A stretch of 64,000 nucleotides of DNA from Anaerolineae bacterium. Lineage in GTDB: Bacteria > Chloroflexota > Anaerolineae > JACRMK01. The notes beneath the pieces were generated by a model. That model was not told the DNA's origin and did no database searches. It saw only the letters and a program-made list of their open reading frames with translations. The DNA lies in the NCBI GenBank assembly GCA_038198935.1, contig JBBPZQ010000033.1, positions 1,484 through 65,483 on the forward strand, read 5' to 3'. The position numbers were made by a program, and so were the translations under genes. Positions 6,074 to 63,965 of the stretch are shown one piece after another (within the stretch, counting starts at the first letter, position 1; every line of letters begins with the position of its first letter).

Positions 6074-6097
6074 CGTGGTCTCCTGAACATTAGGTAT

Positions 6098-6145
6098 GAG
6101 TCCTGAGTGCTGAGTCCTGAGAAGTCCCACTCAGGACTCAGCACT
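6098..6145. repeat. palindromic tandem-octamer element (GAGTCCTGAG family) at the argB/argD junction
   Basis: gagtcctgagtgctgagtcctgagaagtcccactcaggactcagcact: tandem units plus their inverted copies. The left and right arms are reverse complements. Confidence 0.6.
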
Positions 6146-6884
6146 GGATGACAGTTCCCGTTCCGTTCCGCAGTCCATCTAAATCGCAAATCACTACTGA
6201 CTTCACGCCGGCGCTGATGGCTTCGACGGCTGACTTCACTTTCGGAATCATGCCGCCGCTGATCTGGCCCGATGCGATGTGCTCGTCAATCTCGGCGGGC
6301 GTGAGCTGAGATACGATGGCGCCATTGAGTTGCACGCCGGGCACGTTGGTCACAAAGATCAGCGCGTCGGCGTTCATCGCCTTGGCGACCGCGAGCGCAA
6401 CGTGATCGGCGTTGATGTTGTAGGCGTGCCCGTCACTGCCCACGCCGATCGGCGCAATGACGGGCACGATGTGCTCTTTCATGAAAAGTTTGAGCGCGTC
6501 CGCGTTGACGTGCGTGATGCTGCCGACGAACAACAAGTCGCCTTGCTGAATGCGCAATGGCTCACAGCGCATCAGGTTCAGGTCTGCGCCGCTCAGTCCG
6601 ATCGCTTGCGCGCCGGCATTGTTCAGCGTGCGCACCAAGCGCTTGTTGATCGTCCCGCCCAGCACCATCTCGACGATTTGCAGCGACGCTTCGTCGGTCA
6701 CGCGCAAGCCTTCAACGAAGCGCGGCGCGATGCCGAGTCTGGTTTGCAGCGCGGCGATCTCTTTGCCGCCGCCATGCACGATGATCGGCGGCGACGACTG
6801 TGTCGCAATGATCTGAGCGAATTGCTGTAGGAACTCTGGCGAGTCAATCTCGTTGCCGCCGAGCTTTATGACATTCATGGCCAC
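6138..6884 (-). CDS. argB: acetylglutamate kinase
   Basis: 248 aa; amino-acid kinase family (VIKLGG...HGGG, NINADHVALAVA, GGMIPKV). Confidence 0.92.
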   Translation of the reverse strand: MAMNVIKLGGNEIDSPEFLQQFAQIIATQSSPPIIVHGGGKEIAALQTRLGIAPRFVEGLRVTDEASLQIVEMVLGGTINKRLVRTLNNAGAQAIGLSGADLNLMRCEPLRIQQGDLLFVGSITHVNADALKLFMKEHIVPVIAPIGVGSDGHAYNINADHVALAVAKAMNADALIFVTNVPGVQLNGAIVSQLTPAEIDEHIASGQISGGMIPKVKSAVEAISAGVKSVVICDLDGLRNGTGTVIQC

Positions 6885-7955: not shown

Positions 7956-7977
7956 GGTTCGCTCCGCGAGGGAGGTT

Positions 7978-8090
7978 AGGGACTTGAGACCGGAGGTTGG
8001 CATACTTCAGTCTCCGGTCTCCCATCACCCATCTCCAGATAACAAAAATCCCAGACTTGAGTCTGGGATGTGTTCGCATACGACGGACGC
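7978..8090. repeat. two hairpins (GGGACTTGAG family) in the arg operon leader / divergent promoter region
   Basis: gagaccggagg...tctccggtctc (7986-8021) and atcccagacttgagtctgggat (8048-8069). Units resemble the deoA insertions. Confidence 0.5.
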
Positions 8091-16535: not shown

Positions 16536-17711
16536 TCACCAATCAACATCCAGCACGCGCTCCAATCGCGTCAAGCCCTCAATCAGCTTCGGCGTTTCCA
16601 CTAATGCCGAGAGCATCAAGAAGCAGCCGCGCTCTTCGTCGTAAAAGTAACCGGGATGTGCGAACAGTCCCGCCTCAAGCATATCGGCTAACAGCAAATC
16701 TTCGGCGTGGCAGTCCACCACTTCCGGAAACAGATACGTCCCGCCAAAAGGCGGCGCGACGCGCACCCAATTGATATTGTGCAAGTGGGCGAGCGCGACG
16801 AGCAAGTTGGATTGAATGCGTGCTCGCATCTGCTCCACGAATGGCCTGCCGCGCTCGAACAAGGTCGGCAGCATGAACTGAGTCAGCGAGTTTGCGCCGA
16901 GCAGTGTATCGCTCAGAAGTTCGAGCGGCTCGATATAATCGTCGGCACTGGGCCCGCTGATGGCGATCCAGCCGAGCTTTAGATCGGGCAGTGCAAACAT
17001 CTTCGAGATGCCGTTGAGATGGAACACCGTCGCGTCGGGATGCAAAGTTCCGATGGGCGGCACGCTGCGCGCGGCGAAAGGAAATTCGCAGAACACTTCG
17101 TCGGCAATGATGGGGAGGTTGGAAGTTGGAAGTCGGAGTGTTTCGGTAATGACGTGTCCCGTCGGATTGTGCGGTGAGATGAGCATGACGGCTCGTGTGC
17201 ATTCATCCATCTGCTCAGTCAATCGTGCACCATCCACTGCCCATTGCAGCGTATGTAGTGAAAACTCGGATTGCGCACCTACAATGTCCAACCAATAGTT
17301 TCGCAATTCGATGTGATTCATCGCCGCGAGGTGACTAAACAACGGGTAACTCGGAATCGGCGCGAGCACGTTGTCGCCCGGCTGTGTGAGCAAGGCGAAC
17401 AGCAGCGAGTACGCCTCATTCGTGCTCGCCGTGATGAAAATATGCTCTGGCGAAATGTCGAGCGGCGGCTCGCGGCGCGCGTAGTATCGCGCGATGGCTT
17501 CTCGGGCGCGCAGGCTGCCCTTCGGGTGCGGCTCGTAGCGCCGCGTGCGCCAATACTCTTCGGAGGCGTCGCGCAGGATGTCGGTCGGGAAGATGAAACC
17601 ATGATGCGTGGGGTTGCTGCTGCTCAGATCAATATAATCGTCGCGCTGCGCAGCTAGTCGGCGCAACTGTTCGAGTGGCGACGGCGTGAGGTCGAGCGCA
17701 GCGAGTGACAT
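16536..17711 (-). CDS. class I/II PLP-dependent aminotransferase
   Basis: SPHNPTGHV and NGISKMF (PLP lysine) motifs. Start chosen at MSLAALDL. The longer ORF-track start is unsupported. Confidence 0.8.
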   Translation of the reverse strand: MSLAALDLTPSPLEQLRRLAAQRDDYIDLSSSNPTHHGFIFPTDILRDASEEYWRTRRYEPHPKGSLRAREAIARYYARREPPLDISPEHIFITASTNEAYSLLFALLTQPGDNVLAPIPSYPLFSHLAAMNHIELRNYWLDIVGAQSEFSLHTLQWAVDGARLTEQMDECTRAVMLISPHNPTGHVITETLRLPTSNLPIIADEVFCEFPFAARSVPPIGTLHPDATVFHLNGISKMFALPDLKLGWIAISGPSADDYIEPLELLSDTLLGANSLTQFMLPTLFERGRPFVEQMRARIQSNLLVALAHLHNINWVRVAPPFGGTYLFPEVVDCHAEDLLLADMLEAGLFAHPGYFYDEERGCFLMLSALVETPKLIEGLTRLERVLDVDW

Positions 17712-17911: not shown

Positions 17912-19684
17912 ATGAAAATTCTGCTCCGCCTGCTCGCCAACCTCAACCGTTATCGTCTTCAGATGTTCATCACCTACGTCTGTCTGTTCGGCATCATCGC
18001 GTTGAATCTGTACGTGCCGCAGTTGATACGACGGGTAATTGACGAAGGCGTGACGCACGGCGATCGTCAGTTCCTCGTCAACGCGGGCGTGCTGATCATG
18101 GGCATCGCATTGCTGCGCGGCGCGTTCGGTTTTGGGCGCATGTACCTGACGGAGTGGCTGGCGCAGCGCATTGGCTACGACTTTCGCAATCAACTGTACG
18201 ACAAGTATCAACGTCTGTCGTTCGCGTTCCACGACCACGCGCACACGGGCGATCTGATGTCGCGCGCGACCAGCGATGTGGACGGCGTGCAGCGCTTCAT
18301 CGGCAACGGCTTGCTCGACCTCGCCAACATCGCCGTCACGCTCGTCGGCAGCATCGCCATCATGCTCACGTCCGATGTGCGGCTCACCTTGCTCACGCTC
18401 GCGCCGATTCCCGTGCTTGTGGTTGTAACCGTGCGCTTCGGATTGAATCAGCGCGTCTTGTCCAAGCGCGTGCAAGAGCAGATGGGCAAACTCAGCACGA
18501 CACTGCAAGAGAATTTGACGGGCGTGCGCGTCGTTAAAGCATTTGCGCGCGAGGCATACGAGGTCAACAAGTTCGAGACGGAGAACCGAGATTATCTCGG
18601 CAAACGTCTCGCCGTCGTGCAGTCGTGGGCGAGCACGTTCCCGTTCATGAACTTCATCATTGCGGTCTGCACCGCAGTCCTGTTGTGGTTCGGCGGGCAA
18701 GACGTGATTCGTGGCACGCTCAGCATCGGCACACTCGTGGCATTCAACGCCTATATCCTGATGCTTTCACTGCCCGTTCAGCGCCTCGGCTTTCTGGTCA
18801 ATATGATGTCGAATGCCGTCGCGTCGGGCGAGCGTTTGTTCGAGATCCTCGACCAACCATCGAAGGTGCGTGAGAGCGCAAGCGCGACGATCCTCGGCGC
18901 TGTTGATGGCTTCGTGAAATTCGAGCATGTAAATTTTTCGTTTGGCGACAATGAGGTACTTCACGATGTGTCGTTTGAGGCGCGACCAAGCGAGGCCGTC
19001 GCGCTGATGGGTCCGACCGGCGCGGGCAAGAGCAGCATCGTGAATCTGATCCCGCGCTTCTACGACGTGACGAGCGGGCGCATCACAGTGGACGGTCACG
19101 ACATCCGTAACGTGACGCTCGCCTCGCTGCGTCGTCAGATCGGCATGGTGCTGCAAGAGTCGTTTCTGTTCTCGGCGACCATTCGGCAGAACATCGCATA
19201 CGGCAATCGCAACTCTGACCTCGACGACGTGATCGCGGCGGCGAAGGCAGCGCGCGCGCATGACTTCATCATGCAACTGCCTGATGGCTATGAGACGCGC
19301 ATCGGCGAGCGCGGCATCACACTGAGCGGTGGTCAGCGGCAGCGCGTCGCCATCGCGCGTGCGCTCTTGCTTAACCCGCGCATCTTGATACTGGACGATT
19401 CGCTCTCGGCGGTGGACACCGAGACCGAGTATCTCATTCAGCAAGCGTTGGCGACCTTGATGAACGGGCGCACGACGTTCGTGATTGCGCAGCGGCTCAT
19501 CACGCTAAAAAGTGCCGATCAGATCATCGTGCTCGATCACGGGCGCATCGTGCAGCGCGGCACGCACGATGATTTGGTACAGCAGCCCGGCCTATACAAG
19601 CGCATCTACGAATTGCAGTTGAAGGATCAAGAGGAAGTGGCGAGCAGCGAGTGGCGAGTGGCGAGTGTTCAGCGGATTGGATAA
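17912..19684 (+). CDS. ABC exporter, fused permease/ATPase (MsbA/type I exporter family), subunit 1
   Basis: Six-TM domain plus NBD with Walker A GPTGAGKSS, signature LSGGQRQR and Walker B ILILDD. The C-terminal tail is encoded by a tandem GAGTGGC repeat. Confidence 0.9.
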   Translation: MKILLRLLANLNRYRLQMFITYVCLFGIIALNLYVPQLIRRVIDEGVTHGDRQFLVNAGVLIMGIALLRGAFGFGRMYLTEWLAQRIGYDFRNQLYDKYQRLSFAFHDHAHTGDLMSRATSDVDGVQRFIGNGLLDLANIAVTLVGSIAIMLTSDVRLTLLTLAPIPVLVVVTVRFGLNQRVLSKRVQEQMGKLSTTLQENLTGVRVVKAFAREAYEVNKFETENRDYLGKRLAVVQSWASTFPFMNFIIAVCTAVLLWFGGQDVIRGTLSIGTLVAFNAYILMLSLPVQRLGFLVNMMSNAVASGERLFEILDQPSKVRESASATILGAVDGFVKFEHVNFSFGDNEVLHDVSFEARPSEAVALMGPTGAGKSSIVNLIPRFYDVTSGRITVDGHDIRNVTLASLRRQIGMVLQESFLFSATIRQNIAYGNRNSDLDDVIAAAKAARAHDFIMQLPDGYETRIGERGITLSGGQRQRVAIARALLLNPRILILDDSLSAVDTETEYLIQQALATLMNGRTTFVIAQRLITLKSADQIIVLDHGRIVQRGTHDDLVQQPGLYKRIYELQLKDQEEVASSEWRVASVQRIG

Positions 19685-23563: not shown

Positions 23564-23947
23564 ATGCTGAACGTCCAGAAACGCATTTTCAAAGATAGCA
23601 AGTCGCCGGACAAGTTTGAGACGCTGCTCGGTCCGAGCGCGAACTTTGACGGCCAACTGAAGTGCTCCGGCGGCGTGCGCGTGGAAGGCGACTTCAAGGG
23701 CGGAATCGAGACCGATGGCAATATCATCGTCGGCAAAGCCGCAAACGTTAGCGCCGATTTGCGCGGCCACAACATGTTAATCGCGGGCAAAGTGAACGGC
23801 AACATCTTCGCGCATGGTCAGCTCGCCATACTCTCGACGGGGCAAGTACTCGGCGATGTCGAGGTCGGCTCGATCTTGATCGAAGAAGGTGGCGTGTTCA
23901 GCGGACGCAGCACGGTGCACACGAATGGACACGGGGCTAACGCTTGA
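23564..23947 (+). CDS. bactofilin family cytoskeletal protein
   Basis: DUF583 beta-helical repeats (GGVRVEGDFKGGIETDGNIIVGKAANVSADLRGHNMLIAGKVNGNIFA...). ATG at 23564 with AAAGGA RBS. Confidence 0.85.
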   Translation: MLNVQKRIFKDSKSPDKFETLLGPSANFDGQLKCSGGVRVEGDFKGGIETDGNIIVGKAANVSADLRGHNMLIAGKVNGNIFAHGQLAILSTGQVLGDVEVGSILIEEGGVFSGRSTVHTNGHGANA

Positions 23948-24003
23948 TTTCAGATTGCAGATTGAGCGAGCAAATCTGCAATCTGAAATCTGAAATCTAA
24001 AAT
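23947..24003. repeat. hairpin element, AATCTGAAATCTG family
   Basis: tttcagattgcagattg agcgagc aaatctgcaatctgaaatctgaaatc: tandem heptamers with inverted copies. Confidence 0.6.
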
Positions 24004-27364: not shown

Positions 27365-27435
27365 GCGGGTATGGTTCAGTGGTAGAACGCGAGCTTCCCA
27401 AGCCTGAAACGCGGGTTCGATTCCCGCTACCCGCT
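27365..27435 (+). tRNA. tRNA-Gly (anticodon CCC)
   Basis: Cloverleaf by hand: acceptor GCGGGTA/TACCCGC, D arm GTTC-AGTGGTA-GAAC, anticodon loop TTCCCAA, T arm GCGGG-TTCGATT-CCCGC. One A-C mismatch in the anticodon stem. CCA is not encoded. Confidence 0.85.
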
Positions 27436-33238: not shown

Positions 33239-35889
33239 GGCGCGAATCCGCGCAGCATGATCGCATCGCCGCCGCTTGAGCTGGACAGCCGCCCTCCGTC
33301 GCTCAACGTGTACATGCCGACCGCGATGTGGTCGAGCCGAGCAAGCGAATCGGCGCTCAAAGCAATTGCGTGCACATCATAGATCACCTCGCCGCGTGCC
33401 CACGCGTGCGTCGGATAACGACCCGCCAGCGGCTGTGCGTCGCCTTGCGCGATGATGCGATTCTGGGCGTCGAGCAGATGCACGAACACAGTATAGTCTG
33501 TGCTGATCGCCGTATCGGCACGCCAAGTGAGCGCGAGCGATGCGCCGCCCGCCTCACGCACCAAGCGATACTCCAGCAGCGAAGCCTGTCCCGCCAAGGT
33601 AGCAAACACGTCCTTGGATGACGGCATTGTGTCTGGAGCGCGCTTGAGTTCCGTAATGATGCCGTTATTTACCGACGCGGGAAGTCGCTTGTTGGCTTGC
33701 GCGTCGAACACCTCTACACGCAAGCGCAGCAGGCTTGGCGTCGGCAGTGCACTCAGTGGAATTTCTTGCTCGTCGCTCATCAGTGTTTTCGGCAGCCACC
33801 ACGTCATCGGGAAGGGATCGAGTCCGCGCGCGGGCGATGTGCGCGCCACCACTTGCCCGCTCGTATCGAGCAGTAACACGCCCACATCGTAGTCAGCGGA
33901 TAGTCGCTCGGTCGCGCGCCACAGCAAGCGCACCCTCAGCGTGCACGTCGCCAACCTAGTTGCGCAGTCGTCGACCACAATCGGACGCGCATCGGCGCGC
34001 GCGTCGTCGCCAACACCTTCGATGCGATAGCCGACGAGTTGCAGCGCGTCGCCGAACTGCACGGCGAGCGATTGGAATTGTCCTGCATCGCCTTCGATGA
34101 CTAATGCTCGGGTGTGCACGTTCCACAAGGCGAGCGCGCGCTGCATGTCCGAGCGCGCAGCATCTGACTGGCCGAGCGCATCGTCGTAGCGCGCGCGCTC
34201 GACGTACTCGTTGCTGAATTGCTCGAAGTCATTTTCGGCGCGCGCCAGATTTTGCTCGTAGTAGCCCGACTCGGCCAGTTCGCGTTTGTGCGCTTCACCT
34301 GACGGGATCGTGCTCAGCAGAAACAGCGCGAACGCAGCGGGCACGCACGCGAGCACGACGAGCCAGCGCGCCTGCCGACCCATGCCGCCATCCAGCAGCC
34401 AGCGCGCGCCCAAGCGCACGACGACGAGCGAGCTGAGACCAAACAGCAGCAGGCTGTCCATCAAAAACGGCGCGCGCGGCGCGAGCCAGTGCGCCGCCAG
34501 CAATTCTGGCAGGCGACGCAGCACGATGGCTTGGTACGAGATCCACTGCCGCGCCGAATGATATTCTGAAAACGACGTGAGCGCGCCGAAGGCTTGCAGG
34601 AAATAACCGTAGCTCCAGAGCGCGCAGAAAATTCCGAACAGGATTGCAGGCTTCGCAACGAGTGACGAGAGACTAGAGACTCGCTTCGTCACCCGTCGCC
34701 AGCCCCTCGACTCGATCAGTTCTGCGAAGCCCATCACAAAAAGCGGCGTGAGTCCGATGAAGTAGCGTGCGCCGAACGAGACGCCCGCCCACCAGCCGAT
34801 GCGTGTTGCGCTGCTGTACGCAATCGCGAGCAAGGCGATGAGCGCGCCGCCGTACAATGCACGCTCGCGATTGAAGCCGACGAGCCAACCGAGTGTTGCG
34901 ACCAGCAAGATCGGCGCGGTGAAATACAGACCGTGATACGATGAGAACAGCACGTCGAGCAAATGCGCGCCGCTCCAATTTGATTCGAGCGTGTACGGAT
35001 TGGCGAGTGGACTGCCCAAAGTGATCCACCACGCGACGAGTTGCGGGAGCAGGGGAAGGAAAACGCCTAATGCGACGGCGCAGACAGTCAAGAGCCATTT
35101 TTGATCTATTATTTTGAAGTTTGGATTGAGCGAAGAAATTACCAACCGAAAGTCAAAGATTAAGAATACGCCGAGCACAGCGTGGTATTGCGCCACGCTC
35201 ATCAGCAAGCCGAGCAGCAAGCCAAGTCCGAACCATTGCCGGGACGTACGACGCGCGCGCGTCGTGTGCCACAGGTAAAGGTACAGCGCGCACAGCAGCG
35301 CCGAGATTGTGTGATAACTCGGCGCGAGCGCCGTAGCGTAATAAATGAATGAGGAGCCGAACGCGACGAGCAGCGTGGCGATGAGCGCGGTGCGTCGCGT
35401 GAAGCGCGTGCACGCCCAGCGGTACATCACCACTAATGCAAGCAACCCATAGACCCAATCGCCGAAGTCGAGCCACAGCGCATAGTTCATCGCCAGCCCG
35501 CTGCCGATGCCGCCGTGCAGCCATGCAGCGAGCACGCCAAGCAAATAGAATGGCAGCCAGAATGGAATCACGCCGACGTTTGCAATTTGCGCGGCGTAGC
35601 CCGTCGAGGTGATGATGATGCGCTGCCCGTAATGCTGGAGCTCATTCATCAGCAGCAGGTCGTGGTCGAACACCAGCGAACGCAGGTAAGACGTGTAGCG
35701 CGTGCCGTCGGGTCCGCCAAGCGTCGAGCGCACGAGCAGCACGAATGCGACGAACCACACGAGCCATGCCACATAAATTTTGAGGTTGGCGCGCAGCTCG
35801 GCGCGCAGTACGGTGAAGGACAGCGAAGGGTAGTGAGATTGGCGAACGCGCAACGGCAGCGCGCGAGCGATCAGGTCAAAACGTCGCAT
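33235..35889 (-). CDS. GT39/ArnT-like membrane glycosyltransferase with large C-terminal extracytoplasmic domain containing an internal tandem duplication
   Basis: 884 aa. About 12 N-terminal TM helices in GT-C/PMT_2-like topology. The C-terminal half contains two similar segments (DYDVGVLLLDTSGQVVARTSPARGLDPFPMTWW... and DYTVFVHLLDAQNRIIAQGDAQPLAGRYPTHAW...). Confidence 0.7.
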   Translation of the reverse strand: MRRFDLIARALPLRVRQSHYPSLSFTVLRAELRANLKIYVAWLVWFVAFVLLVRSTLGGPDGTRYTSYLRSLVFDHDLLLMNELQHYGQRIIITSTGYAAQIANVGVIPFWLPFYLLGVLAAWLHGGIGSGLAMNYALWLDFGDWVYGLLALVVMYRWACTRFTRRTALIATLLVAFGSSFIYYATALAPSYHTISALLCALYLYLWHTTRARRTSRQWFGLGLLLGLLMSVAQYHAVLGVFLIFDFRLVISSLNPNFKIIDQKWLLTVCAVALGVFLPLLPQLVAWWITLGSPLANPYTLESNWSGAHLLDVLFSSYHGLYFTAPILLVATLGWLVGFNRERALYGGALIALLAIAYSSATRIGWWAGVSFGARYFIGLTPLFVMGFAELIESRGWRRVTKRVSSLSSLVAKPAILFGIFCALWSYGYFLQAFGALTSFSEYHSARQWISYQAIVLRRLPELLAAHWLAPRAPFLMDSLLLFGLSSLVVVRLGARWLLDGGMGRQARWLVVLACVPAAFALFLLSTIPSGEAHKRELAESGYYEQNLARAENDFEQFSNEYVERARYDDALGQSDAARSDMQRALALWNVHTRALVIEGDAGQFQSLAVQFGDALQLVGYRIEGVGDDARADARPIVVDDCATRLATCTLRVRLLWRATERLSADYDVGVLLLDTSGQVVARTSPARGLDPFPMTWWLPKTLMSDEQEIPLSALPTPSLLRLRVEVFDAQANKRLPASVNNGIITELKRAPDTMPSSKDVFATLAGQASLLEYRLVREAGGASLALTWRADTAISTDYTVFVHLLDAQNRIIAQGDAQPLAGRYPTHAWARGEVIYDVHAIALSADSLARLDHIAVGMYTLSDGGRLSSSSGGDAIMLRGFAP

Positions 35890-39684: not shown

Positions 39685-39702
39685 GTGTCAAAAAGAAAAT
39701 TA

Positions 39703-39760
39703 GGGGAGATTAGAACAAACTAGCGGAAGCGCGCTTCCCTAATCTCCCCTAATGTCCCCT
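39703..39760 (-). terminator. rplS terminator hairpin built from tandem TAATCTCCCC units
   Basis: ggggagattag...ctaatctcccc with inner palindrome ggaagcgcgcttcc. A T-rich run follows on the minus strand. Confidence 0.65.
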
Positions 39761-39788
39761 AATTTCATTGCGTTGGTGGTACGGAGGG

Positions 39789-47982: not shown

Positions 47983-48054
47983 TGCCCCCGGGGCGACTCG
48001 AACGCCCGCACATGGCTCCGGAGGCCACTGCTCTATCCACTGAGCTACGGGGGC
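47983..48054 (-). tRNA. tRNA-Arg (anticodon CCG)
   Basis: Reverse complement folds as a cloverleaf: acceptor GCCCCCG/CGGGGGC, D arm GCTC-AGTGGATA-GAGC, anticodon loop CTCCGGA, T arm GGGCG-TTCGAGT-CGCCC. Confidence 0.85.
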
Positions 48055-52942: not shown

Positions 52943-53017
52943 TCCTCCTCGATCAATTATTGTGTGCCATCATACCATCGTGAACTAGCGGCTGTCAACG
53001 TATGCAGCGCCCATTGA

Positions 53018-53047
53018 TTGACAATTTCGACTGCACTCCATTACAAT
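53018..53047 (+). promoter_or_regulatory. sigma70-like promoter for alaS
   Basis: TTGACA (53018-53023), 17-nt spacer, TTACAAT. Confidence 0.5.
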
Positions 53048-53106
53048 CATCCCAGCCGTATTGTTGTTTATTTTTGGTTGAAAGCGATTTGTGCATGGTC
53101 AAGCGC

Positions 53107-55845
53107 ATGACGAGCGCGCAGATTCGCCGCGCGTTCCTCGATTATTTCAAACGCAACGCACACACCGAAGTTCCATCCTCGTCGCTGATCCCCGGCGATC
53201 CCACGCTGCTGTTCACCAATGCCGGCATGGTGCAGTTTAAGGACACGTTTCTCGGCTTAGAGAAGCGCGCCTACTTGCGCGTGACCACCGCACAGAAGAG
53301 TATGCGCGTAAGCGGCAAGCACAACGATCTCGAAAATGTGGGACCCTCGCCGCGTCATCATACCTTCTTCGAGATGCTCGGCAACTTTTCGTTCGGCGAT
53401 TACTTTAAGCGCGACGCGATTCGCTTCGCGTACGAGTTGCTGACGCAAGTGTACGGCTTGCCACCCGACCGACTCGCGTACACGGTCTATGAAAACGACG
53501 ACGAAGCGTACAACGTCTGGGTTAACGAGATCGGCGTGGACCCGCGCCGCGTCGCGCGTATGGGCGCAAAGACGAATTTCTGGCAGATGGCGGACACGGG
53601 ACCCTGCGGGCCCACCAGCGAAATTCACTGGGACATCCATCCCGAACTCGGCGTGGACAGCATCATCCCGCTGGTACAAGCCGAAGACGATCGCTTCCTC
53701 GAATTGTGGAACCTCGTCTTCATGCAGTTCAATCGCAAGCAAACGCCCGACGGATTCGTGGACGAGCCGCTGCCGAAACCTGGCGTGGATACGGGCATGG
53801 GCTTGGAGCGCATCAGTGCCGTCGTGCAAAATGTGCCATCCAACTACGACACCGATCTGTTCATGCCGATCATGGACGCGATTCAGGAAATCTTGCATCA
53901 CGACGATACGACGCGCGAGAAGAATTACATCGCCTACCGCGTGATCGCCGATCATGGCCGCGCGATGACGTTCCTGCTTGCGGACGGTGTGCTGCCGGGC
54001 AATGAGGGCGCGACGTATGTGCTGCGTATGGTGATGCGGCGCGCGATGCGCTTTGCAAAAATGATGGGCGTGGATCGGCCATTCCTCGGCGAGGTCGCGC
54101 GCGCGATTGTGCACGAGATGTCGAGCCACTACACCGAGTTGTCGGCGAAGCAGGACTTCATCATCAAAGCGATTGCGCAAGAAGAAGAACGCTTCCGCCA
54201 GACGCTGGAAAATGGTTTAACGATTCTCGACGATATCACGGTTGATCTGCAAGCGCGCGGCGAGGCCATCATTCCGGGCGACGCAGTGTTCCGCTTGTGG
54301 GATACCTACGGTTTCCCGATTGACCTCACGCGCGATGTGGCGCACGAGCGCGGGCTGACGCTGGACGAAGACGGATTCCGCACGGCGATGGAGCGGCAGC
54401 GCAAACAGTCGCAAGCGGCGGGCAAGTTCACGTTCGGCGAACAACAGGATGTGTATCGCGCGCTGAATTTGCCCGAAACAAAATTTCTTGGCTACACGAC
54501 AACACGCGCGAGCGGAACGCTGATCGCAATTCTGCGCGACGGCGAATCGGTGGAGCAGGCGAGGGTAGGGGACACGATTGAACTCGTGCTCGATCAAACA
54601 CCGTTCTATGCCGAGTCAGGTGGCCAAGTGGGCGATACGGGCGTCATCGAAACGTTGCATGGCGCAGCCGCGTCTTTACAAAATGCAGTGGTGCAAATTG
54701 TAGATACACAGAAGCCGGTGGCTGGACTGATTGCACATCGCGGACGCGTCGTGTCCGGAGCGCTCCGCGTCGGCGACACGGTGAGTGCGCGCGTGGACGA
54801 ACAGCGCTGCGCCGACATCATGCGCAATCATACGGCGACGCACCTGCTACACAAAGCACTGCATGAGATTCTGGGCCCACACGCCACGCAGAAAGGCTCT
54901 CTCGTTGCGCCCGACCGCTTGCGCTTTGATTTCAACCATCTCGCGCCGATCACGCGCGAAGAGTTGCAAACGATCGAATCGCGCGTCAACGACATGATCC
55001 TGCGCAACTTGCCCGTGCATTGGTACGTGACCACCAAAGCAGAAGCAATGCGCGCCGGTGCGATGGCGCTCTTCGGTGAGAAGTACGGTGACGAAGTGCG
55101 CGTCGTGTGTGTCGCAGATCGTCCACTGTCTGAGAACCAACGAGCAAACCAACCAACTCCCCAACTTCCAGATTGTTACTCTCGCGAATTGTGCGGCGGC
55201 ACACATCTCGACTCGACGGGCCAGATCGGCTTGTTCCTGATCTTGAGCGAAAGTTCCGTCGGTGCGGGTTTGCGCCGCATCGAGGCGCTGAGCGGTCGAG
55301 GCGCGCAGCAATTCGTGCGCGAGCGGCTGTCGCTTCTCAATGATCTATCCGCACAATTGGGCGCACCGCCGGAGCAAGTCGTTAAGCGCCTGAAGGCACT
55401 GCAGGATGAACTCGACGCACGCAAGAAGGAATTGGGGCAATTACAGCGCGCCTCCGCCAAGTCCGACCTCGATTCGTTGTTGGGCCGCGCTCAGCGCGTG
55501 GAAGGCGTTTCCGTCATCGCCGAAGCGGTGAACGCGGCGAGCGCCGACGTGCTGCGCGAGATGAGCGACGCGCTGCGCGATAAACTCGGCTCGGGTGTGG
55601 TAGCCTTGGGCGCGGTCATCAACGACAAACCGTCACTCATCGTTTCGATCACCCCAGACCTGATCGCTCGCGGCTTACGTGCGGGCGATCTGATCAAGCA
55701 GCCCGCCCGACTGATGGGCGGTAGCGGCGGTGGCAGACCGAACATGGCACAGGCTGGCGGCAAGGACGCGGCGAAGTTGGGCGATGTACTGTCGCTAATT
55801 CCAAGCGTCATCGAAAATACGCTCAAGGGACACAACGGAGATTAA
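53107..55845 (+). CDS. alaS: alanine--tRNA ligase
   Basis: Class II aaRS catalytic core (FTNAGMVQFKD, GNFSFGDYFK), editing domain (HTATHLLH...CGGTH) and C-terminal DHHA1. The start is ATG at 53107 or 53095. A low-complexity insertion of about 20 aa lies before ELCGGTH. Confidence 0.93.
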   Translation: MTSAQIRRAFLDYFKRNAHTEVPSSSLIPGDPTLLFTNAGMVQFKDTFLGLEKRAYLRVTTAQKSMRVSGKHNDLENVGPSPRHHTFFEMLGNFSFGDYFKRDAIRFAYELLTQVYGLPPDRLAYTVYENDDEAYNVWVNEIGVDPRRVARMGAKTNFWQMADTGPCGPTSEIHWDIHPELGVDSIIPLVQAEDDRFLELWNLVFMQFNRKQTPDGFVDEPLPKPGVDTGMGLERISAVVQNVPSNYDTDLFMPIMDAIQEILHHDDTTREKNYIAYRVIADHGRAMTFLLADGVLPGNEGATYVLRMVMRRAMRFAKMMGVDRPFLGEVARAIVHEMSSHYTELSAKQDFIIKAIAQEEERFRQTLENGLTILDDITVDLQARGEAIIPGDAVFRLWDTYGFPIDLTRDVAHERGLTLDEDGFRTAMERQRKQSQAAGKFTFGEQQDVYRALNLPETKFLGYTTTRASGTLIAILRDGESVEQARVGDTIELVLDQTPFYAESGGQVGDTGVIETLHGAAASLQNAVVQIVDTQKPVAGLIAHRGRVVSGALRVGDTVSARVDEQRCADIMRNHTATHLLHKALHEILGPHATQKGSLVAPDRLRFDFNHLAPITREELQTIESRVNDMILRNLPVHWYVTTKAEAMRAGAMALFGEKYGDEVRVVCVADRPLSENQRANQPTPQLPDCYSRELCGGTHLDSTGQIGLFLILSESSVGAGLRRIEALSGRGAQQFVRERLSLLNDLSAQLGAPPEQVVKRLKALQDELDARKKELGQLQRASAKSDLDSLLGRAQRVEGVSVIAEAVNAASADVLREMSDALRDKLGSGVVALGAVINDKPSLIVSITPDLIARGLRAGDLIKQPARLMGGSGGGRPNMAQAGGKDAAKLGDVLSLIPSVIENTLKGHNGD

Positions 55846-58835: not shown

Positions 58836-58914
58836 GGAGTGACGACAGACGTTGGACGGTTGACGGCACACTACGACCTGCCGTCCGCCGTTCGCCGTCT
58901 GGCGTCGCGCAACT

Positions 58915-59376: not shown

Positions 59377-60565
59377 ACAGAACACTTTTCGGGAACGACA
59401 CGAAGCGAAACATCGCCCGCGTTGGTCGCCGCTGCGCGCACTGATGTTCCTCGCCGTGCTCGCCGTGTGCGGCGGCGTCGGCTACCTGATTTTCTCCCCT
59501 TTACTGCAAACCGCCAGACCCGCATCCAGCGCGCCGAGCGCCTCGACCAGCAATCAGCCTGCCGGGCGCGGCTCTTCGATTGATCAAGTGTTGCTCAACA
59601 TCTATCTCAGTCTCAAGCAGAGCGAAATTGACGCGCGCTCGAGCGGCACGGGCGACGTGCCGTTCGCGGTGCAAAATGGCGACACGCCCGCGACGATAGG
59701 CACTCGGCTGAAAAGCATGGGCATGTTGAGCGACGCAGAATTATTCCGGCTGCTGGCGCGCGCACGCGGCGTGGAGAACAACTTGCAGGCGGGTGAATAC
59801 ACATTGAAGCGCGGCATGACGATGGACGAAATCCTCATCGCGCTGCAACACGGACGCGACCGTCCGAATGTGCTGACCATCGTCGAGGGGCGGCGCGTCG
59901 AAGAGATCGCGGGCTTGCTCGACAAGCAAGGCATCGCCAAAGCCAGCGACTTCATCAACGCCACGAAGATGAGCGCCACGTACAACATTCCTGAACTAAA
60001 CGGCCGCCCGAACGGCTCGACGCTGGAAGGCTTCTTGTTCCCCGACACCTACGACCTGCCGAAGGACGCGACGGCGCAGCAACTCGTGCAGTTGATGCTT
60101 CGCAACTTCGACAAGAAAGCCGGCGGCGATCAGTGGAGCAAACCACCGCAAGGACTGACGGCGTATCAGACGCTCATCATCGCGTCCATCGTCGAGCGTG
60201 AGGCGCAGGTGCCGAGCGAGCGGCCCATCATTGCCAGCGTGTATGAGAATCGCATCAAGCAGGGGATGCGTCTCGAAGCCGACCCGACCGTGCAGTACGG
60301 CATGGGCTTGCAGCCGAATGGCTCGTGGTGGAAGACGCCCGTCATGCTCGAAGAGTATCAGCGTGTCAACTCGCCATACAACACGTACACCAACGACGGC
60401 TTGCCGCCCACGCCGATTTGCAGTCCCGGTGCGGATGCGATCAAAGCTGCGTTCCAACCCGCGAAGACGGAATTCCTCTTCTTCGTCGGCAAGGGCGACG
60501 GCACCCACGCCTTCGCCAAGACGTTCGAGGAACATCAGGCGAACGTTGCGAAGTATCAGAAGTAG
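59369..60565 (+). CDS. mltG: endolytic murein transglycosylase MltG (YceG family)
   Basis: N-terminal TM. The YceG domain ends ...YNTYTNDGLPPTPICSPG... with catalytic Glu region LIIASIVEREAQ. Confidence 0.88.
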   Translation: MARQNTFRERHEAKHRPRWSPLRALMFLAVLAVCGGVGYLIFSPLLQTARPASSAPSASTSNQPAGRGSSIDQVLLNIYLSLKQSEIDARSSGTGDVPFAVQNGDTPATIGTRLKSMGMLSDAELFRLLARARGVENNLQAGEYTLKRGMTMDEILIALQHGRDRPNVLTIVEGRRVEEIAGLLDKQGIAKASDFINATKMSATYNIPELNGRPNGSTLEGFLFPDTYDLPKDATAQQLVQLMLRNFDKKAGGDQWSKPPQGLTAYQTLIIASIVEREAQVPSERPIIASVYENRIKQGMRLEADPTVQYGMGLQPNGSWWKTPVMLEEYQRVNSPYNTYTNDGLPPTPICSPGADAIKAAFQPAKTEFLFFVGKGDGTHAFAKTFEEHQANVAKYQK

Positions 60566-60640
60566 GGCGGACGACGGACGACGGACGACCGACGACGGAT
60601 GGTCAATCGTCAATCCTCGGTCGTCCGTCGTTTGCGTGCT
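60566..60640. repeat. tandem GACGACG heptamer hairpin after mltG (terminator-like)
   Basis: gacgacggacgacggacgaccgacgacgg...ggtcgtccgtcgt followed by ttgcgtg. Confidence 0.55.
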
Positions 60641-61166
60641 TGTTGGATTGTGGCTGCTCGCCGCCTGCGCTCCCATCCAACTCACTCGCCCCGTATTCAA
60701 GCTCGGCTTACTCGCGCCGTTCGAGGGTAAAGGGCGCGCGAGCGGCTACGAAGCACTCTATGCGGCCAAACTCGCGCTTCAAGAGCGGAACGCCACAGGT
60801 GGCATCGCGGGTTGGTCGGCCGAGTTGGTTGCCCTAGACGATGGCGACGACTTCGCGCAGACGATCCAGCAGGCGCGCGTGCTTGCGGCCGATCCCGACG
60901 TGATGCGGATGCTCGTCGTGATCCCTTCAAATGAGATGCAACGCGCGAACACGCGACTGGTGTCGCTCGGATTGGCGTTTGATATGGTTGCACCGCAAGC
61001 GACTGATGGCAATACTGCGAACAGCGCCGCATTCATCGCTGCCTATCACTCCATCTCTGGTGGCATCACACCCGGCGCGCTCGCCGCGCAAACATATACA
61101 ATGACGCAGTCCGCGCTCGCGCAAATCGAGCAGCGCATCCGCGCGCAAGGTCATCCGTCTCGCTAA
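60636..61166 (+). CDS. truncated periplasmic-binding-protein type 1-like lipoprotein fragment (LivJ-like N-terminal domain only)
   Basis: Lipobox LWLLAAC. KLGLLAPFEGKGRASGYEALYAAKLALQERNATGGIAGW..VALDDGDD resembles a branched-chain amino-acid-binding protein N-lobe but stops after about 176 aa. Start codon (GTG 60636) uncertain. The ORF-track upstream extension overlaps mltG and is rejected. Confidence 0.4.
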   Translation: MLVGLWLLAACAPIQLTRPVFKLGLLAPFEGKGRASGYEALYAAKLALQERNATGGIAGWSAELVALDDGDDFAQTIQQARVLAADPDVMRMLVVIPSNEMQRANTRLVSLGLAFDMVAPQATDGNTANSAAFIAAYHSISGGITPGALAAQTYTMTQSALAQIEQRIRAQGHPSR

Positions 61167-61200
61167 CCACATCCATACTTCATCGTTAATACTTTACCAG

Positions 61201-62427: not shown

Positions 62428-62432
62428 GAGCA

Positions 62433-62500
62433 CCCTCTCCCAGCGGGAGAGGGCAGGGTGAGGGAGAGCTCTCCCTCATCCCCAACCCTTCTCCCGCAAG
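62433..62500. repeat. two adjacent perfect hairpins between convergent genes (bidirectional terminator; CCCTCTCC family)
   Basis: ccctctccc-agc-gggagaggg and gagggagag-ctctccctc. Similar to 38590-38625. Confidence 0.6.
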
Positions 62501-62510
62501 CAGAAGAGAA

Positions 62511-63965
62511 TCAGCGAATGATTCTGTGAACATGCAGCGGCATCGCCACCGCCTCGTCTGCAAACGTGTACGCGCCGAGCAGGGCTTCCCGCTCGGCGTT
62601 GGCTTTGCTCTCGTCGTTGGCGTGGATGGTGAACAGCGGTTCACCGCATGTCAGCTTGTCGCCAACTTTCTTGTGCAACACGACGCCCACTGCAAGATCG
62701 ATGGAGTCGCCTTTCTTCATGCGACCAGCGCCCAGCCGCATCGCGCTTAAACCGACCGCGAGCGCATCGAGCGCGGCGACATAACCATCATGCGGAGCGG
62801 GCACCGCTTCGATCAGGTTCGCGTGCGGCAGCAGCGAAAAATCGTCGGCCACGCGCGCATCGCCACCCTGGGCCGCAATCCACTCGCGGAATTTTTGCAG
62901 CGCGCGGCCGCTCGAAATCGCTTCGTTCAAAATCTGTCGCGCCTCTGCTTCGTCCTTCGCGCGGCCAACCAGTTGCAACAATTCGGTGGCGACGGCGAGG
63001 CAATGCTCTCGGAAATCCTGTCCAACGTCGAAGCCAATGTCCCGTGTCCCATGTCCGATGTCCTCTGAGCGATATGGGGCTTGGGACTTGGGACTTAGGA
63101 CTTGGGACATCGTACGCAGCGCAGTAATCGCTTCCATCACCTCCAGCGCGTTGCCGACCGTCGCGCCGAGCGGCTGATTCATGTCGGCGATGACCGCGCT
63201 AACCTTGCGCCCTACGCCTTGCCCGATCTCGACCATCGTCTGTGCGAGCGCGATGGCCTCTGCCTCGGTCTGCATGAACGCGCCGCGTCCCACTTTCACG
63301 TCCAGCACAATCGCATCTGCGCCCGCCGCGATCTTTTTGCTCATGATTGACGACGCGATGAGCGGCATCGAAGCGACCGTCGCGGTGACATCGCGCAGGG
63401 CGTAGAGCCGACCATCGGCGGGCGCGAGCTCATGTGTTTGCCCCGCTAGCACGATGCCAACATCCAGAATATTTTTCTTGAACTGCGCGACGCTCAGCTC
63501 GCTGCTGAAGCCAGCAATCGAATCGAGCTTGTCGAGCGTGCCGCCGGTGTGCCCAAGCCCGCGCCCGCTCATTTTAGCAATAGCGACGCCACACGCCGCG
63601 ACCAACGGCGCGACCATGATCGTCGTCTTGTCGCCGACGCCGCCGGTGGAGTGTTTGTCGGCGATCAAAATGTCCGAAGTCCCATGTCCGAAGTCCCATG
63701 TCGAGGTTCGGACTTTGGACTTTGGACTTTGGACTTTGGACTTCACATCGCTCAGGTCAAGCACTATGCCGCTATGCGCCATCGCCAGCGTCAGCGCGAC
63801 CATTTCCTGTTTGCTCATGCCGCGCAGGTAAACGGCCATCAGCCACGCGGCCACTTGGTAATCGGGGATGTCGCCGCGCGTGAAGCCTGCGACGAGGAAT
63901 TTGATTTCGTCGTCGGACAGTTCGCCGCCGTCGCGCTTCTTGGCGATGAGGTCAAGTGCGCGCAT
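62511..63965 (-). CDS. deoA: thymidine / pyrimidine-nucleoside phosphorylase carrying two in-frame repeat-element insertions
   Basis: Canonical motifs are present (DKHSTGGVGDKTTI, SGRGLGHTGGTLDKL, C-terminal PYNP domain). Two inserts of about 25 aa are encoded by palindromic tandem-repeat DNA: KSKVQSPKSKVRTSTWDFGHGTSDI and TMSQVLSPKSQAPYRSEDIGHGTRDIGFDV. Confidence 0.88.
   Translation of the reverse strand: MRALDLIAKKRDGGELSDDEIKFLVAGFTRGDIPDYQVAAWLMAVYLRGMSKQEMVALTLAMAHSGIVLDLSDVKSKVQSPKSKVRTSTWDFGHGTSDILIADKHSTGGVGDKTTIMVAPLVAACGVAIAKMSGRGLGHTGGTLDKLDSIAGFSSELSVAQFKKNILDVGIVLAGQTHELAPADGRLYALRDVTATVASMPLIASSIMSKKIAAGADAIVLDVKVGRGAFMQTEAEAIALAQTMVEIGQGVGRKVSAVIADMNQPLGATVGNALEVMEAITALRTMSQVLSPKSQAPYRSEDIGHGTRDIGFDVGQDFREHCLAVATELLQLVGRAKDEAEARQILNEAISSGRALQKFREWIAAQGGDARVADDFSLLPHANLIEAVPAPHDGYVAALDALAVGLSAMRLGAGRMKKGDSIDLAVGVVLHKKVGDKLTCGEPLFTIHANDESKANAEREALLGAYTFADEAVAMPLHVHRIIR
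63036..63112. repeat. intragenic palindromic tandem-octamer element (copy A) inside deoA, in frame
   Basis: atgtcccgtgtcccatgtccgatgtcc-tctgagcgatatgg-ggcttgggacttgggacttaggacttgggacat: the arms are near reverse complements. Confidence 0.75.
63669..63740. repeat. intragenic palindromic tandem-octamer element (copy B) inside deoA, in frame
   Basis: tgtccgaagtcccatgtccgaagtcccatgtcgag-gttcggactttggactttggactttggacttcacatcg. Homologous to copy A (shared SPKS...GHGTxD peptide). Confidence 0.75.

Follow-up and report, generated by a model that had tools for sequence, protein, structure and literature searches.

The pyrimidine-nucleoside (thymidine) phosphorylase gene (pdp) of an Anaerolineae bacterium carries two in-frame hairpin inserts, each of which is built from inverted tandem arrays of 7-nt units. 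The gene lies in a 64-kb stretch of contig JBBPZQ010000033.1 (hereafter the window) from a Chloroflexota metagenome-assembled genome (MAG). The insert nearer the protein N-terminus is named S1, and the later one is named S2. S1 and S2 form part of a population of period-7 arrays that extends across the genome and in which roughly every second array has an inverted partner. With a probability of roughly 0.55, the inserts are selfish or neutral DNA-level hairpin repeats that change by 7-nt slippage, are copied without target-site duplication and are tolerated in permissive loops.

S1 and S2 are each exactly 75 nt (25 codons) long, and both begin in codon phase 0. An ungapped alignment of the two inserts yields 55 identical positions out of 75, which are contributed by the left arm (28/34), the centre (3/13) and the right arm (24/28). 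The arms are 82–86% identical, and the 13-nt centre is unrelated. The initial annotation had described two homologous palindromic elements in the same reading frame and phase, and this description is upheld. Of the boundaries that it gave (63036–63112 and 63669–63740), both starts are retained, and the ends are shifted to 63110 and 63743. Each insert consists of two inverted arrays of exact 7-nt units with a GTCC/GGAC core, and not of 7–8 nt units as originally described. Tandem Repeats Finder (TRF) delimits the period-7 arrays at 63037–63063, 63075–63108, 63670–63702 and 63710–63743, and the inverted repeats formed by the arms are 78–83% complementary. The S1 arm at 63669–63702 matches period 7 at 73% and period 14 at 100%. 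The irregular unit order of the right arm (CGGACATGGGAC...GGACATT) is common to S1 and S2. A pattern of three GTCC units, a gap and three GGAC units gives four overlapping matches in the window, all from S1 and S2, and none in 100 dinucleotide shuffles. No target-site duplication was found flanking S1 or S2, and their sequences contain no terminal GTAG or CGTC tag.

RNA folding of S1 and S2 on both strands produces long imperfect hairpins with free energies of −35 to −44 kcal/mol and z-scores of −3.9 to −6.8, and none of 200 shuffles folds equally well. The S1 region (63663–63750) folds at −43.6 kcal/mol on the plus strand, which is antisense to the mRNA, and at −34.8 kcal/mol in the mRNA sense. 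The corresponding values for the S2 region (63030–63118) are −40.1 and −38.3 kcal/mol. The better plus-strand pairing proposed earlier is therefore clear for S1 and only marginal for S2. No Rfam 15 family matches the hairpins at gathering or permissive thresholds; the only hits were sub-threshold ones of the miRNA-precursor kind. When the gene region was scanned for terminators and promoters, neither was flagged at the hairpins.

The 484-aa phosphorylase aligns with the pyrimidine-nucleoside phosphorylase (PyNP) of Geobacillus (PDB 1brw; E = 2e-127) and contains the Pfam domains Glycos_trans_3N (residues 5–66), Glycos_transf_3 (residues 101–356) and PYNP_C (residues 395–467). Typical homologues comprise 434–436 residues. 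In an alignment with 1brw and other solved PyNP and thymidine phosphorylase structures, the catalytic core aligns throughout, and both segments are additional sequence. S1 adds ∼25 residues between ...LDLSDVK and DKHSTGG, three residues ahead of the latter motif, in the linker that joins the N-terminal helical domain to the α/β domain. S2 adds ∼25 residues in place of the short KGNGPH loop that follows EAIxxL (EAITAL here). The alignment to solved structures thus bears out the two sites named in the initial annotation. An AlphaFold2 model built from 116 homologues has a predicted template-modelling score of 0.88 with a confident core and superposes on 1brw_A with a Foldseek TM score of 0.92. 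The predicted local distance difference test score (pLDDT) falls below 50 at residues 81–89 and 93–96 of S1 and at residues 291–310 of S2. The inserts lie in loops and behave much like Rickettsia palindromic elements (RPEs), as previously suggested, and in the model these in-frame, low-confidence loops leave the core intact. The low-pLDDT loops, the interdomain position of S1 and the hypervariability among orthologues suggest that the 25-residue peptides can be considered passengers, that is, predicted disordered loops that the enzyme would not need and that would be neutral or mildly costly. An insert that is adaptive at the protein level was rejected, given the hypervariable orthologue loops and the modelled disorder.

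More than 100 aligned distant homologues from Chloroflexota and Anaerolineae, of 434–436 residues, have neither insert; the segments are therefore lineage-specific, as was first supposed. The nearest relatives of the phosphorylase (65–78% identity) come from MAGs named as Chloroflexi or Chloroflexota, and the close orthologues retain the gene order pdp-GT4-...-YceG-RuvX-...-AlaRS. Every close orthologue has extended loops at both sites, with unrelated lengths and sequences, which contradicts the simple picture of fresh insertions into a pristine gene. In orthologue P0037, site 2 holds (CGTCCAA)×4 followed by GACATCGGACAT. S2 has both GACATCGGACAT and a GTCC-type left arm in common with this insert, and S2 therefore appears to predate the split from the P0037 lineage. 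Orthologue P0002 contains (CAATTAC)×4 at site 1 and a palindrome (CCCTC.../...GAGGG) resembling repetitive extragenic palindromic (REP) sequences at site 2, and P0062 contains a decamer array, (GGGGAAATTA)×3, at site 2. The loops of P0005, P0006 and P0008 are non-repetitive, and the 12–21 kb of DNA flanking these genes contains no period-7 array; in relatives with repeats inside pdp, heptamer arrays also adjoin the gene. On this sequence comparison, both sites are read as permissive loops older than the present elements, and loop content appears to follow the repeat dynamics active in each genome.

Heptamer arrays were also observed near pdp in relatives. Related (AGTGAAC)n and (CACTGTT)n arrays (L027, 1591–1676) and a GACGGAA/GACGGAC array (L028, 1088–1110) are located at the stop codon of pdp or immediately downstream of it. 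A contig of HGW-Chloroflexi-1 (L004, 6020–6176) contains long arrays of (GCAACCC)n and (TTACTCG/TTACTCA)×12, and period-7 arrays thus occur in other Chloroflexota too.

The window itself is enriched in this one period. A scan for arrays of at least three copies found nine at period 7, compared with 0.25 expected, and periods 4–6 and 8–15 occur at expectation. Six of the nine period-7 arrays have a GTCC core. Most heptamer arrays in the window are intergenic, and 86% of the window is coding by our own gene calls. A third full copy of S1/S2 is absent from the window; of the further copies anticipated earlier, those found are related arrays in the window (Table 1) and similar hairpins that are abundant elsewhere.

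Table 1. Positions of pdp, its two inserts and other heptamer arrays in the window.
Feature	Positions	Strand	Basis	Remarks
pdp, pyrimidine-nucleoside (thymidine) phosphorylase gene	62511–63965	minus	ORF	484 aa; hosts S1 and S2
S1, 75-nt heptamer-array hairpin	63669–63743	minus	TRF, inverted repeats, structure alignment	residues 75–99 (KSKVQSPKSKVRTSTWDFGHGTSDI)
S2, 75-nt heptamer-array hairpin	63036–63110	minus	TRF, inverted repeats, structure alignment	residues 286–310 (MSQVLSPKSQAPYRSEDIGHGTRDI)
S1 arm, (GGACTTT) × 4.9	63710–63743	plus-strand reading	TRF period 7, 100% matches, score 68	mRNA sense (AAAGTCC)n
S1 arm, alternating GTCCGAA/GTCCCAT	63669–63702	plus-strand reading	TRF, inverted repeats	14-nt super-period
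S2 arm, (ATGTCCC) × 3.9	63037–63063	plus-strand reading	TRF, inverted repeat	
S2 arm, (TGGGACT) × 4.9	63075–63108	plus-strand reading	TRF, inverted repeat	
TGAGTCC-unit hairpin	6097–6160		TRF, 14/14 inverted match	between argB and argD
GATTGCA/AAATCTG hairpin	23946–24003		TRF, arms 100% complementary	fills bactofilin–LysM spacer
CGGACGA-unit hairpin	60564–60631		TRF, inverted arms	directly past yceG stop codon
GCCGTCC array	58840–58899		TRF	weaker inverted partner (11/14); spacer before ruvX; probable class member
Degenerate heptamer-like hairpin (GGGACTT/GAGACCG ... GGTCTCC/CATCACC)	7971–8036			5' end of argC
GGAAGTT × 3.4	17114–17137	minus		in-frame in class I/II aminotransferase gene; encodes RLPTSNLP; no clear inverted partner
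AGTGGCG × 4.6	19636–19667	plus		in-frame; C-terminal tail of ABC transporter
Weak period-7 array	34658–34681	minus		in-frame in 884-aa PMT_2-type membrane glycosyltransferase gene

Hairpins of the same architecture are widespread in metagenomes. A scan with the pattern GTCCNNNGTCCNNNGTCC-N(8-38)-GGACNNNGGACNNNGGAC recovered at least 120 contigs with GC contents of 0.40–0.73, and the hairpin statistics given below refer to 121 hairpins among the matches listed. In 103 of the 121 hairpins, the two arms have the same number of units or differ by a single unit. At the three free positions of each unit, complementarity between the arms is 0.70, compared with 0.36 for randomly paired arms, and it is perfect in 30 hairpins (3.5 expected). 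The 121 hairpins comprise 32 majority unit types, and some hairpins of the GTCCGTA type hold GTAG within every unit. The 562 kb of contigs bearing the listed hairpins contain 77 additional period-7 arrays with diverse units, only 12 of which are GTCC-type (∼5% expected by chance). An inverted partner (at least 12/14 matches within 70 nt) accompanies 39 of 84 unselected arrays and 3 of 84 controls. Because units are diverse and inverted partners are frequent, the class is defined by its architecture and not by one sequence. A single sequence-defined family of the RPE kind, as had been envisaged, is at odds with these dozens of unit variants and with the unrelated centres.

Flanking direct repeats were detected at 5.2% of sites, compared with 4.6% in the control (n = 134), and the palindrome reaches into the flanks in 19% of cases (7% in the control). 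Hairpins are kept at orthologous sites with flank identities of 73–87% in three contig pairs (L034/L108, L055/L151 and L103/L119), in which the loops diverge and the arm type is retained. A scan of viral contigs identified 16 viral or prophage stretches. Hairpins are also present in two Acidobacteriota contigs, which were picked up through the insert peptide in a protein-pattern scan of reference genomes. In one of them, a Pyrinomonadaceae genome (L024), a GTCC-type hairpin is intergenic; in the other (L025), the hairpin lies in-frame in the gene of a chorismate-binding enzyme and encodes the peptide PSPKSNVQGHGPTWDFGHGTLD. The latter gene has a second in-frame heptamer stretch (2246–2295), with AAATCTG/AGATTTC units and the peptide FKSEISDFKSKISD; its AAATCTG-type unit is that of the intergenic hairpin in the bactofilin–LysM spacer of the window. 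Heptamer hairpins are thus common in soil-type bacterial DNA, where they also occur in-frame in other housekeeping genes.

Two trivial origins were rejected. An assembly artefact is contradicted by the intact frame, by the occurrence of S2 in one orthologue and by more than 120 independent contigs with equal architecture. A CRISPR-like array would have spacers of regular size, and none are present.

In-frame residence was verified in genes unrelated to pdp. All seven host frames tested are genuine genes, which encode a DnaE-type polymerase III alpha subunit, a Ser/Thr kinase, a GH57 enzyme, a penicillin amidase, CobN, tRNA-guanine transglycosylase (TGT) and a HemN-like radical-SAM enzyme. The Acidobacteriota chorismate-binding enzyme is the eighth in-frame host. 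The kinase hairpin is located between the HRDLKPANILL and DFG motifs. A metagenomic DnaE-type polymerase gene (L038) contains two in-frame GTCC-type hairpins (1649–1710 and 1921–2003), one of them in the HHH_6 region, and parallels the two-copy state of pdp. Not every unit is translatable: GTCCGTA, for instance, contains a stop codon in forward reading. GTCCAAA, GTCCAAG and the units of S1 and S2 can be read on either strand without meeting a stop. Long coding-like frames hold at most 29 of the 106 listed hairpins with adequate flanks. Because bacterial genomes are mostly coding, as is the window, and at most 27% of the hairpins lie in frames, hairpins are strongly depleted from genes; the targeting of coding DNA that the initial annotation proposed is not borne out, given also the mostly intergenic arrays of the window.

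A profile of the hairpin peptides was searched against 5.8 billion proteins and yielded 167 matches (E ≤ 10). The best 120 of the 167 are 30–76 aa long and most are labelled “hypothetical protein”; one is from a Blastocatellia MAG. No host proteins were revealed among the matches listed. The short proteins look like spurious ORFs called over such hairpins, that is, a systematic gene-calling artefact.

The purely local origin of each array, in which native seeds would be expanded by 7-nt slippage and then duplicated in inverted orientation without copying between sites, is an unlikely explanation of the pdp inserts. The (CGTCCAA)n array of P0037 does begin within the conserved Leu-Arg codons CTG CGT, relatives have unrelated repeats at equivalent sites and unit diversity is high, all in favour of a local origin, and polymerase slippage with a preference for 7-nt units has been put forward to explain heptamer repeats in bacteria (Mrazek et al. 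2007, as outlined in PMC4679880 and PMC4692102). However, S1 and S2 are equal in length (75 nt), in codon phase and in their non-homogeneous right arm (24/28). Likewise, two hairpins of one metagenomic contig (L159) agree in the irregular unit order of their arms and differ in their centres, as S1 and S2 do. Conserved host genes, such as that of the kinase between HRDLKPANILL and DFG, contain no obvious seed.

The strand on which the hairpins fold best provides a suggestive indication of their level of action. Nine of the ten Pfam-verified intragenic hairpins (S1, S2 and eight from metagenomes) fold less stably in the mRNA sense than in the antisense orientation, as do 15 of 21 candidates overall, for which the difference is not significant (Wilcoxon p = 0.23). 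Since significance is not reached over all 21 candidates, the asymmetry only weakly suggests constraint at the DNA level rather than at the mRNA level, in agreement with the previous proposal.

Selection for a functional structure is an improbable reading of these folds. The hairpin could be selected as an RNA or DNA element: it might stabilise the mRNA, serve as a site of processing, pause translation at a domain boundary, belong to an antisense transcript or act like a terminator. Alternatively, the peptide loop itself could be adaptive for the enzyme. The very high stability of the folds (energies and z-scores given above), the placement of S1 exactly in the interdomain linker and the retention of hairpins at orthologous positions are in line with a function, as are the intergenic members, which fill co-directional gene spacers or adjoin stop codons in the manner of REP-type stabilisers. 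Yet orthologues have hypervariable inserts that differ in both sequence and length, and some relatives lack any repeat. The sense fold is the weaker one in nine of ten verified intragenic cases, the host proteins are unrelated, the peptides are modelled as disordered, and neither an Rfam family nor a terminator signature was found at the hairpins.

A contingency (phase-variation) switch, in which the gain or loss of one 7-nt unit would shift the frame and reversibly turn pdp off, is highly improbable. Seven is not a multiple of three, and heptanucleotide repeats drive phase variation in Haemophilus influenzae (PMC8262952, PMC12721329); the arrays here, however, are short (4–5 units), the same hairpins reside in essential genes (those of the DnaE-type polymerase and TGT) of free-living soil bacteria, and no frameshifted allele was seen.

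Selfish or neutral hairpin repeats remain the favoured explanation, and the following course of events is proposed. Each hairpin comprises inverted arrays of 4–5 seven-base units, with a GTCC/GGAC core and three freer bases, that flank a short centre without constraint. The arrays would grow, shrink and be homogenised by replication slippage, 7 nt at a time, and intrastrand pairing with arm-to-arm correction in the hairpin would keep the arms complementary. New copies may arise by a route that leaves no duplication, such as ectopic gene conversion, template switching or single-strand hairpin transposition. Survival inside a gene would need a unit that is stop-free in three frames, a total length that is a multiple of three and a site that tolerates additional residues. 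In the ancestor of the clade, both pdp sites would already have been lengthened to hypervariable loops. To judge from its equal length and codon phase at a distance of 633 nt, S1 most probably arose later, as a copy of S2 or of a sibling.

Several points weigh against this explanation. The slippage and arm-correction steps are ones that we infer, and the evidence from the source genome covers 64 kb. Within coding sequence, a heptamer array carries the risk of frameshifts, which makes pure neutrality questionable. The GTCC core is enriched both in the window (6 of 9 arrays) and among unselected metagenomic arrays (12 of 77 versus ∼5% by chance), and identical units recur in unrelated contigs in 28 pairs, compared with 8.0 ± 2.7 for base-shuffled units, a count that is partly inflated by two related phage contigs. 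Such enrichment and recurrence are not explained by a passive model and hint at sequence-specific machinery or horizontal spread. The persistence of hairpins at orthologous sites could also reflect selection for function.

GTCC enrichment, unit recurrence and the AAATCTG unit in the Acidobacteriota gene make an enzyme-mediated, horizontally spreading element the main rival. In this tentative alternative, the hairpin would be a non-autonomous mobile element of the RPE, REP or REPIN kind and the substrate of a trans-acting enzyme, most plausibly an HUH/Y1 transposase specific to single-stranded DNA hairpins and similar to RAYT or TIRYT, which would insert copies without target duplication, some of them in-frame. 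Copies on one contig agree in unit type and even in irregular unit order, the absence of target-site duplications fits Y1-type transposition, and hairpins are found in genomes of both Chloroflexota and Acidobacteriota and in 16 viral or prophage contigs. Units are common to unrelated contigs beyond expectation, the AAATCTG-type unit occurs both at 23946–24003 of the window and in the Acidobacteriota gene (L025), and intragenic REPs are documented together with RAYT and TIRYT genes, including TIRYT in Acidobacteria (PMC3733652). On the other side, Pfam scanning of 59 of the 60 genes called in the window revealed no transposase, copies have unrelated centres (3/13), no GTAG tag is present and many arrays lack the GTCC core. 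Unit diversity is extreme (32 majority types in 121 hairpins), hairpins persist over 13–27% flank divergence instead of turning over, and orthologues hold different repeat types in the two loops. A bolder form of this idea, likewise doubtful, is that GTCC-core hairpins might be cross-phylum, structure-defined mobile “foldback” elements, whose 7-nt arms would be recognised by a putative enzyme system and whose three free bases would give rise to genome-specific variants. If so, the housekeeping proteins of soil bacteria (Chloroflexota, Acidobacteriota and others) would regularly gain new surface loops from foldback elements.

Among known systems, the arrays fall within the description of bacterial heptanucleotide long simple sequence repeats (SSRs), with period 7 dominant and beyond chance. 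Long SSRs have 5–11 nt units, mostly of period 7, and are longer and commoner than chance (Mrazek et al. 2007, as summarised in PMC4679880); the excess of heptamer repeats in bacteria is already on record in the summaries given by PMC4679880 and PMC4692102. Inverted pairs of heptamer arrays were noted in passing in Xanthomonas and Nostoc (PMC4692102). The short tandemly repeated repetitive (STRR) sequences of cyanobacteria resemble the present arrays in that tandem 7-nt units are over-represented, have many variants per genome and are mostly intergenic. The units of STRR1–3 are CCCCAGT, TTGGTCA and CAACAGT. Here, the units are AAAGTCC, CAAGTCC, ATGGGAC and TTCGGAC, in which only the GTCC core is part of a rotation of STRR1, although one metagenomic hairpin (L090) has a GTCCCCA unit, a rotation of the STRR1 unit CCCCAGT. 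The hosts also differ, in that the present arrays come from a Chloroflexota MAG and an Acidobacteriota genome and not from heterocystous cyanobacteria or Xanthomonas. In the literature searched, no description of a regular hairpin architecture or of in-frame residence in conserved enzymes was found for STRR or heptanucleotide repeats.

RPEs are sequence-defined families, conserved over their whole length, in AT-rich Rickettsia. The inserts share with them a palindromic, in-frame repeat that is translated into an additional segment at tolerant sites and that also has intergenic copies. RPEs are about 105–146 bp long (PMC3184786) and reside in-frame in functional genes (Ogata et al. 2000, as cited in PMC3184786 and PMC3733652). 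S1 and S2 are set apart from the published description by their length of 75 nt, their tandem-heptamer arms and their diverged centre (3/13), and the unit sequences of their class vary widely between genomes; they behave like RPEs but are not members of the family. Palindromes that reside in-frame within genes have been described outside Rickettsia as well (PMC3733652).

REPs of the bacterial interspersed mosaic element (BIME) and RAYT systems are palindromes that lie mostly downstream of genes and partly in ORFs of known proteins (PMC3733652, PMC3116915), and intragenic REPs have been described in several phyla (PMC3733652). Intragenic REPs and REPINs are similar to the inserts in being short palindromes, often in inverted pairs, some of them wholly within ORFs and without target duplication. 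Unlike them, S1 and S2 lack a GTAG/CGTC tag and have tandem 7-nt arms instead of a unique 20–40 nt stem, and no RAYT (HUH/Y1) transposase gene is found among the 59 Pfam-scanned genes of the window. Miniature inverted-repeat transposable elements (MITEs) are likewise small, non-coding, dispersed, bounded by inverted termini and occasionally intragenic; a MITE was rejected on account of the absence of target-site duplications (5.2% versus 4.6%, n = 134); the present elements also differ from MITEs in their unconserved interior and in “termini” that are tandem repeats. TAACTGA heptamers of Beggiatoaceae, Cyanobacteria and Bacteroidetes provide a precedent for one unit across distant phyla that is mostly intergenic, with no known mechanism of transfer. 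TAACTGA repeats are translatable in one orientation (PMC4679880), but they form direct arrays (169 direct sets and one indirect set) just upstream of start codons, with one dominant unit (PMC4679880).

A full-text literature search for the sequences of the repeats and peptides returned no paper, and no description was found, within an incomplete literature coverage, of heptamer-array hairpins as recurrent in-frame inserts in conserved genes of Chloroflexota or Acidobacteriota. The hairpins connect the over-representation of heptanucleotide repeats in bacteria with the translation of palindromic repeats inside genes. What connects the two is a concrete architecture that can be searched for, a pair of inverted 7-nt arrays with a GTCC/GGAC core, and it is abundant in environmental genomes. 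It offers a tractable system for studying the origin and spread of repeats, the gain of protein loops from non-coding repeat DNA and the treatment of such stretches by gene callers.

Other repeats of the window have counterparts in the pdp loops of relatives. Between the convergent GT4 and pdp genes, a REP-like double palindrome (62430–62500; CCCTCTCCC...GGGAGAGGG and GGGTGAGGGAGAG/CTCTCCCTCATCCC) folds at −43 to −47 kcal/mol and has no second copy in the window; P0002 (L027) has a related element in-frame at its site 2. A period-10 array, (CCCTAATCTC)×3, lies between rplS and rnhB (39697–39763) with an inverted partner (AAATTAGGGGAGATTAG) immediately upstream, and the decamer in the pdp loop of P0062 (L028), (GGGGAAATTA)×3, is similar to it. 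The CGGACGA hairpin stands at the start of a ∼630-nt stretch without a called gene (60566–61200); relatives carry a small gene between yceG and GT4, which is Peripla_BP_6-like or has no Pfam match. Alanyl-tRNA synthetase (53002–55845) comprises 947 aa here, compared with 891–916 aa in syntenic relatives (L029–L031). The only Rfam matches in the window are two tRNAs, at 27365–27435 on the plus strand and 47983–48054 on the minus strand.

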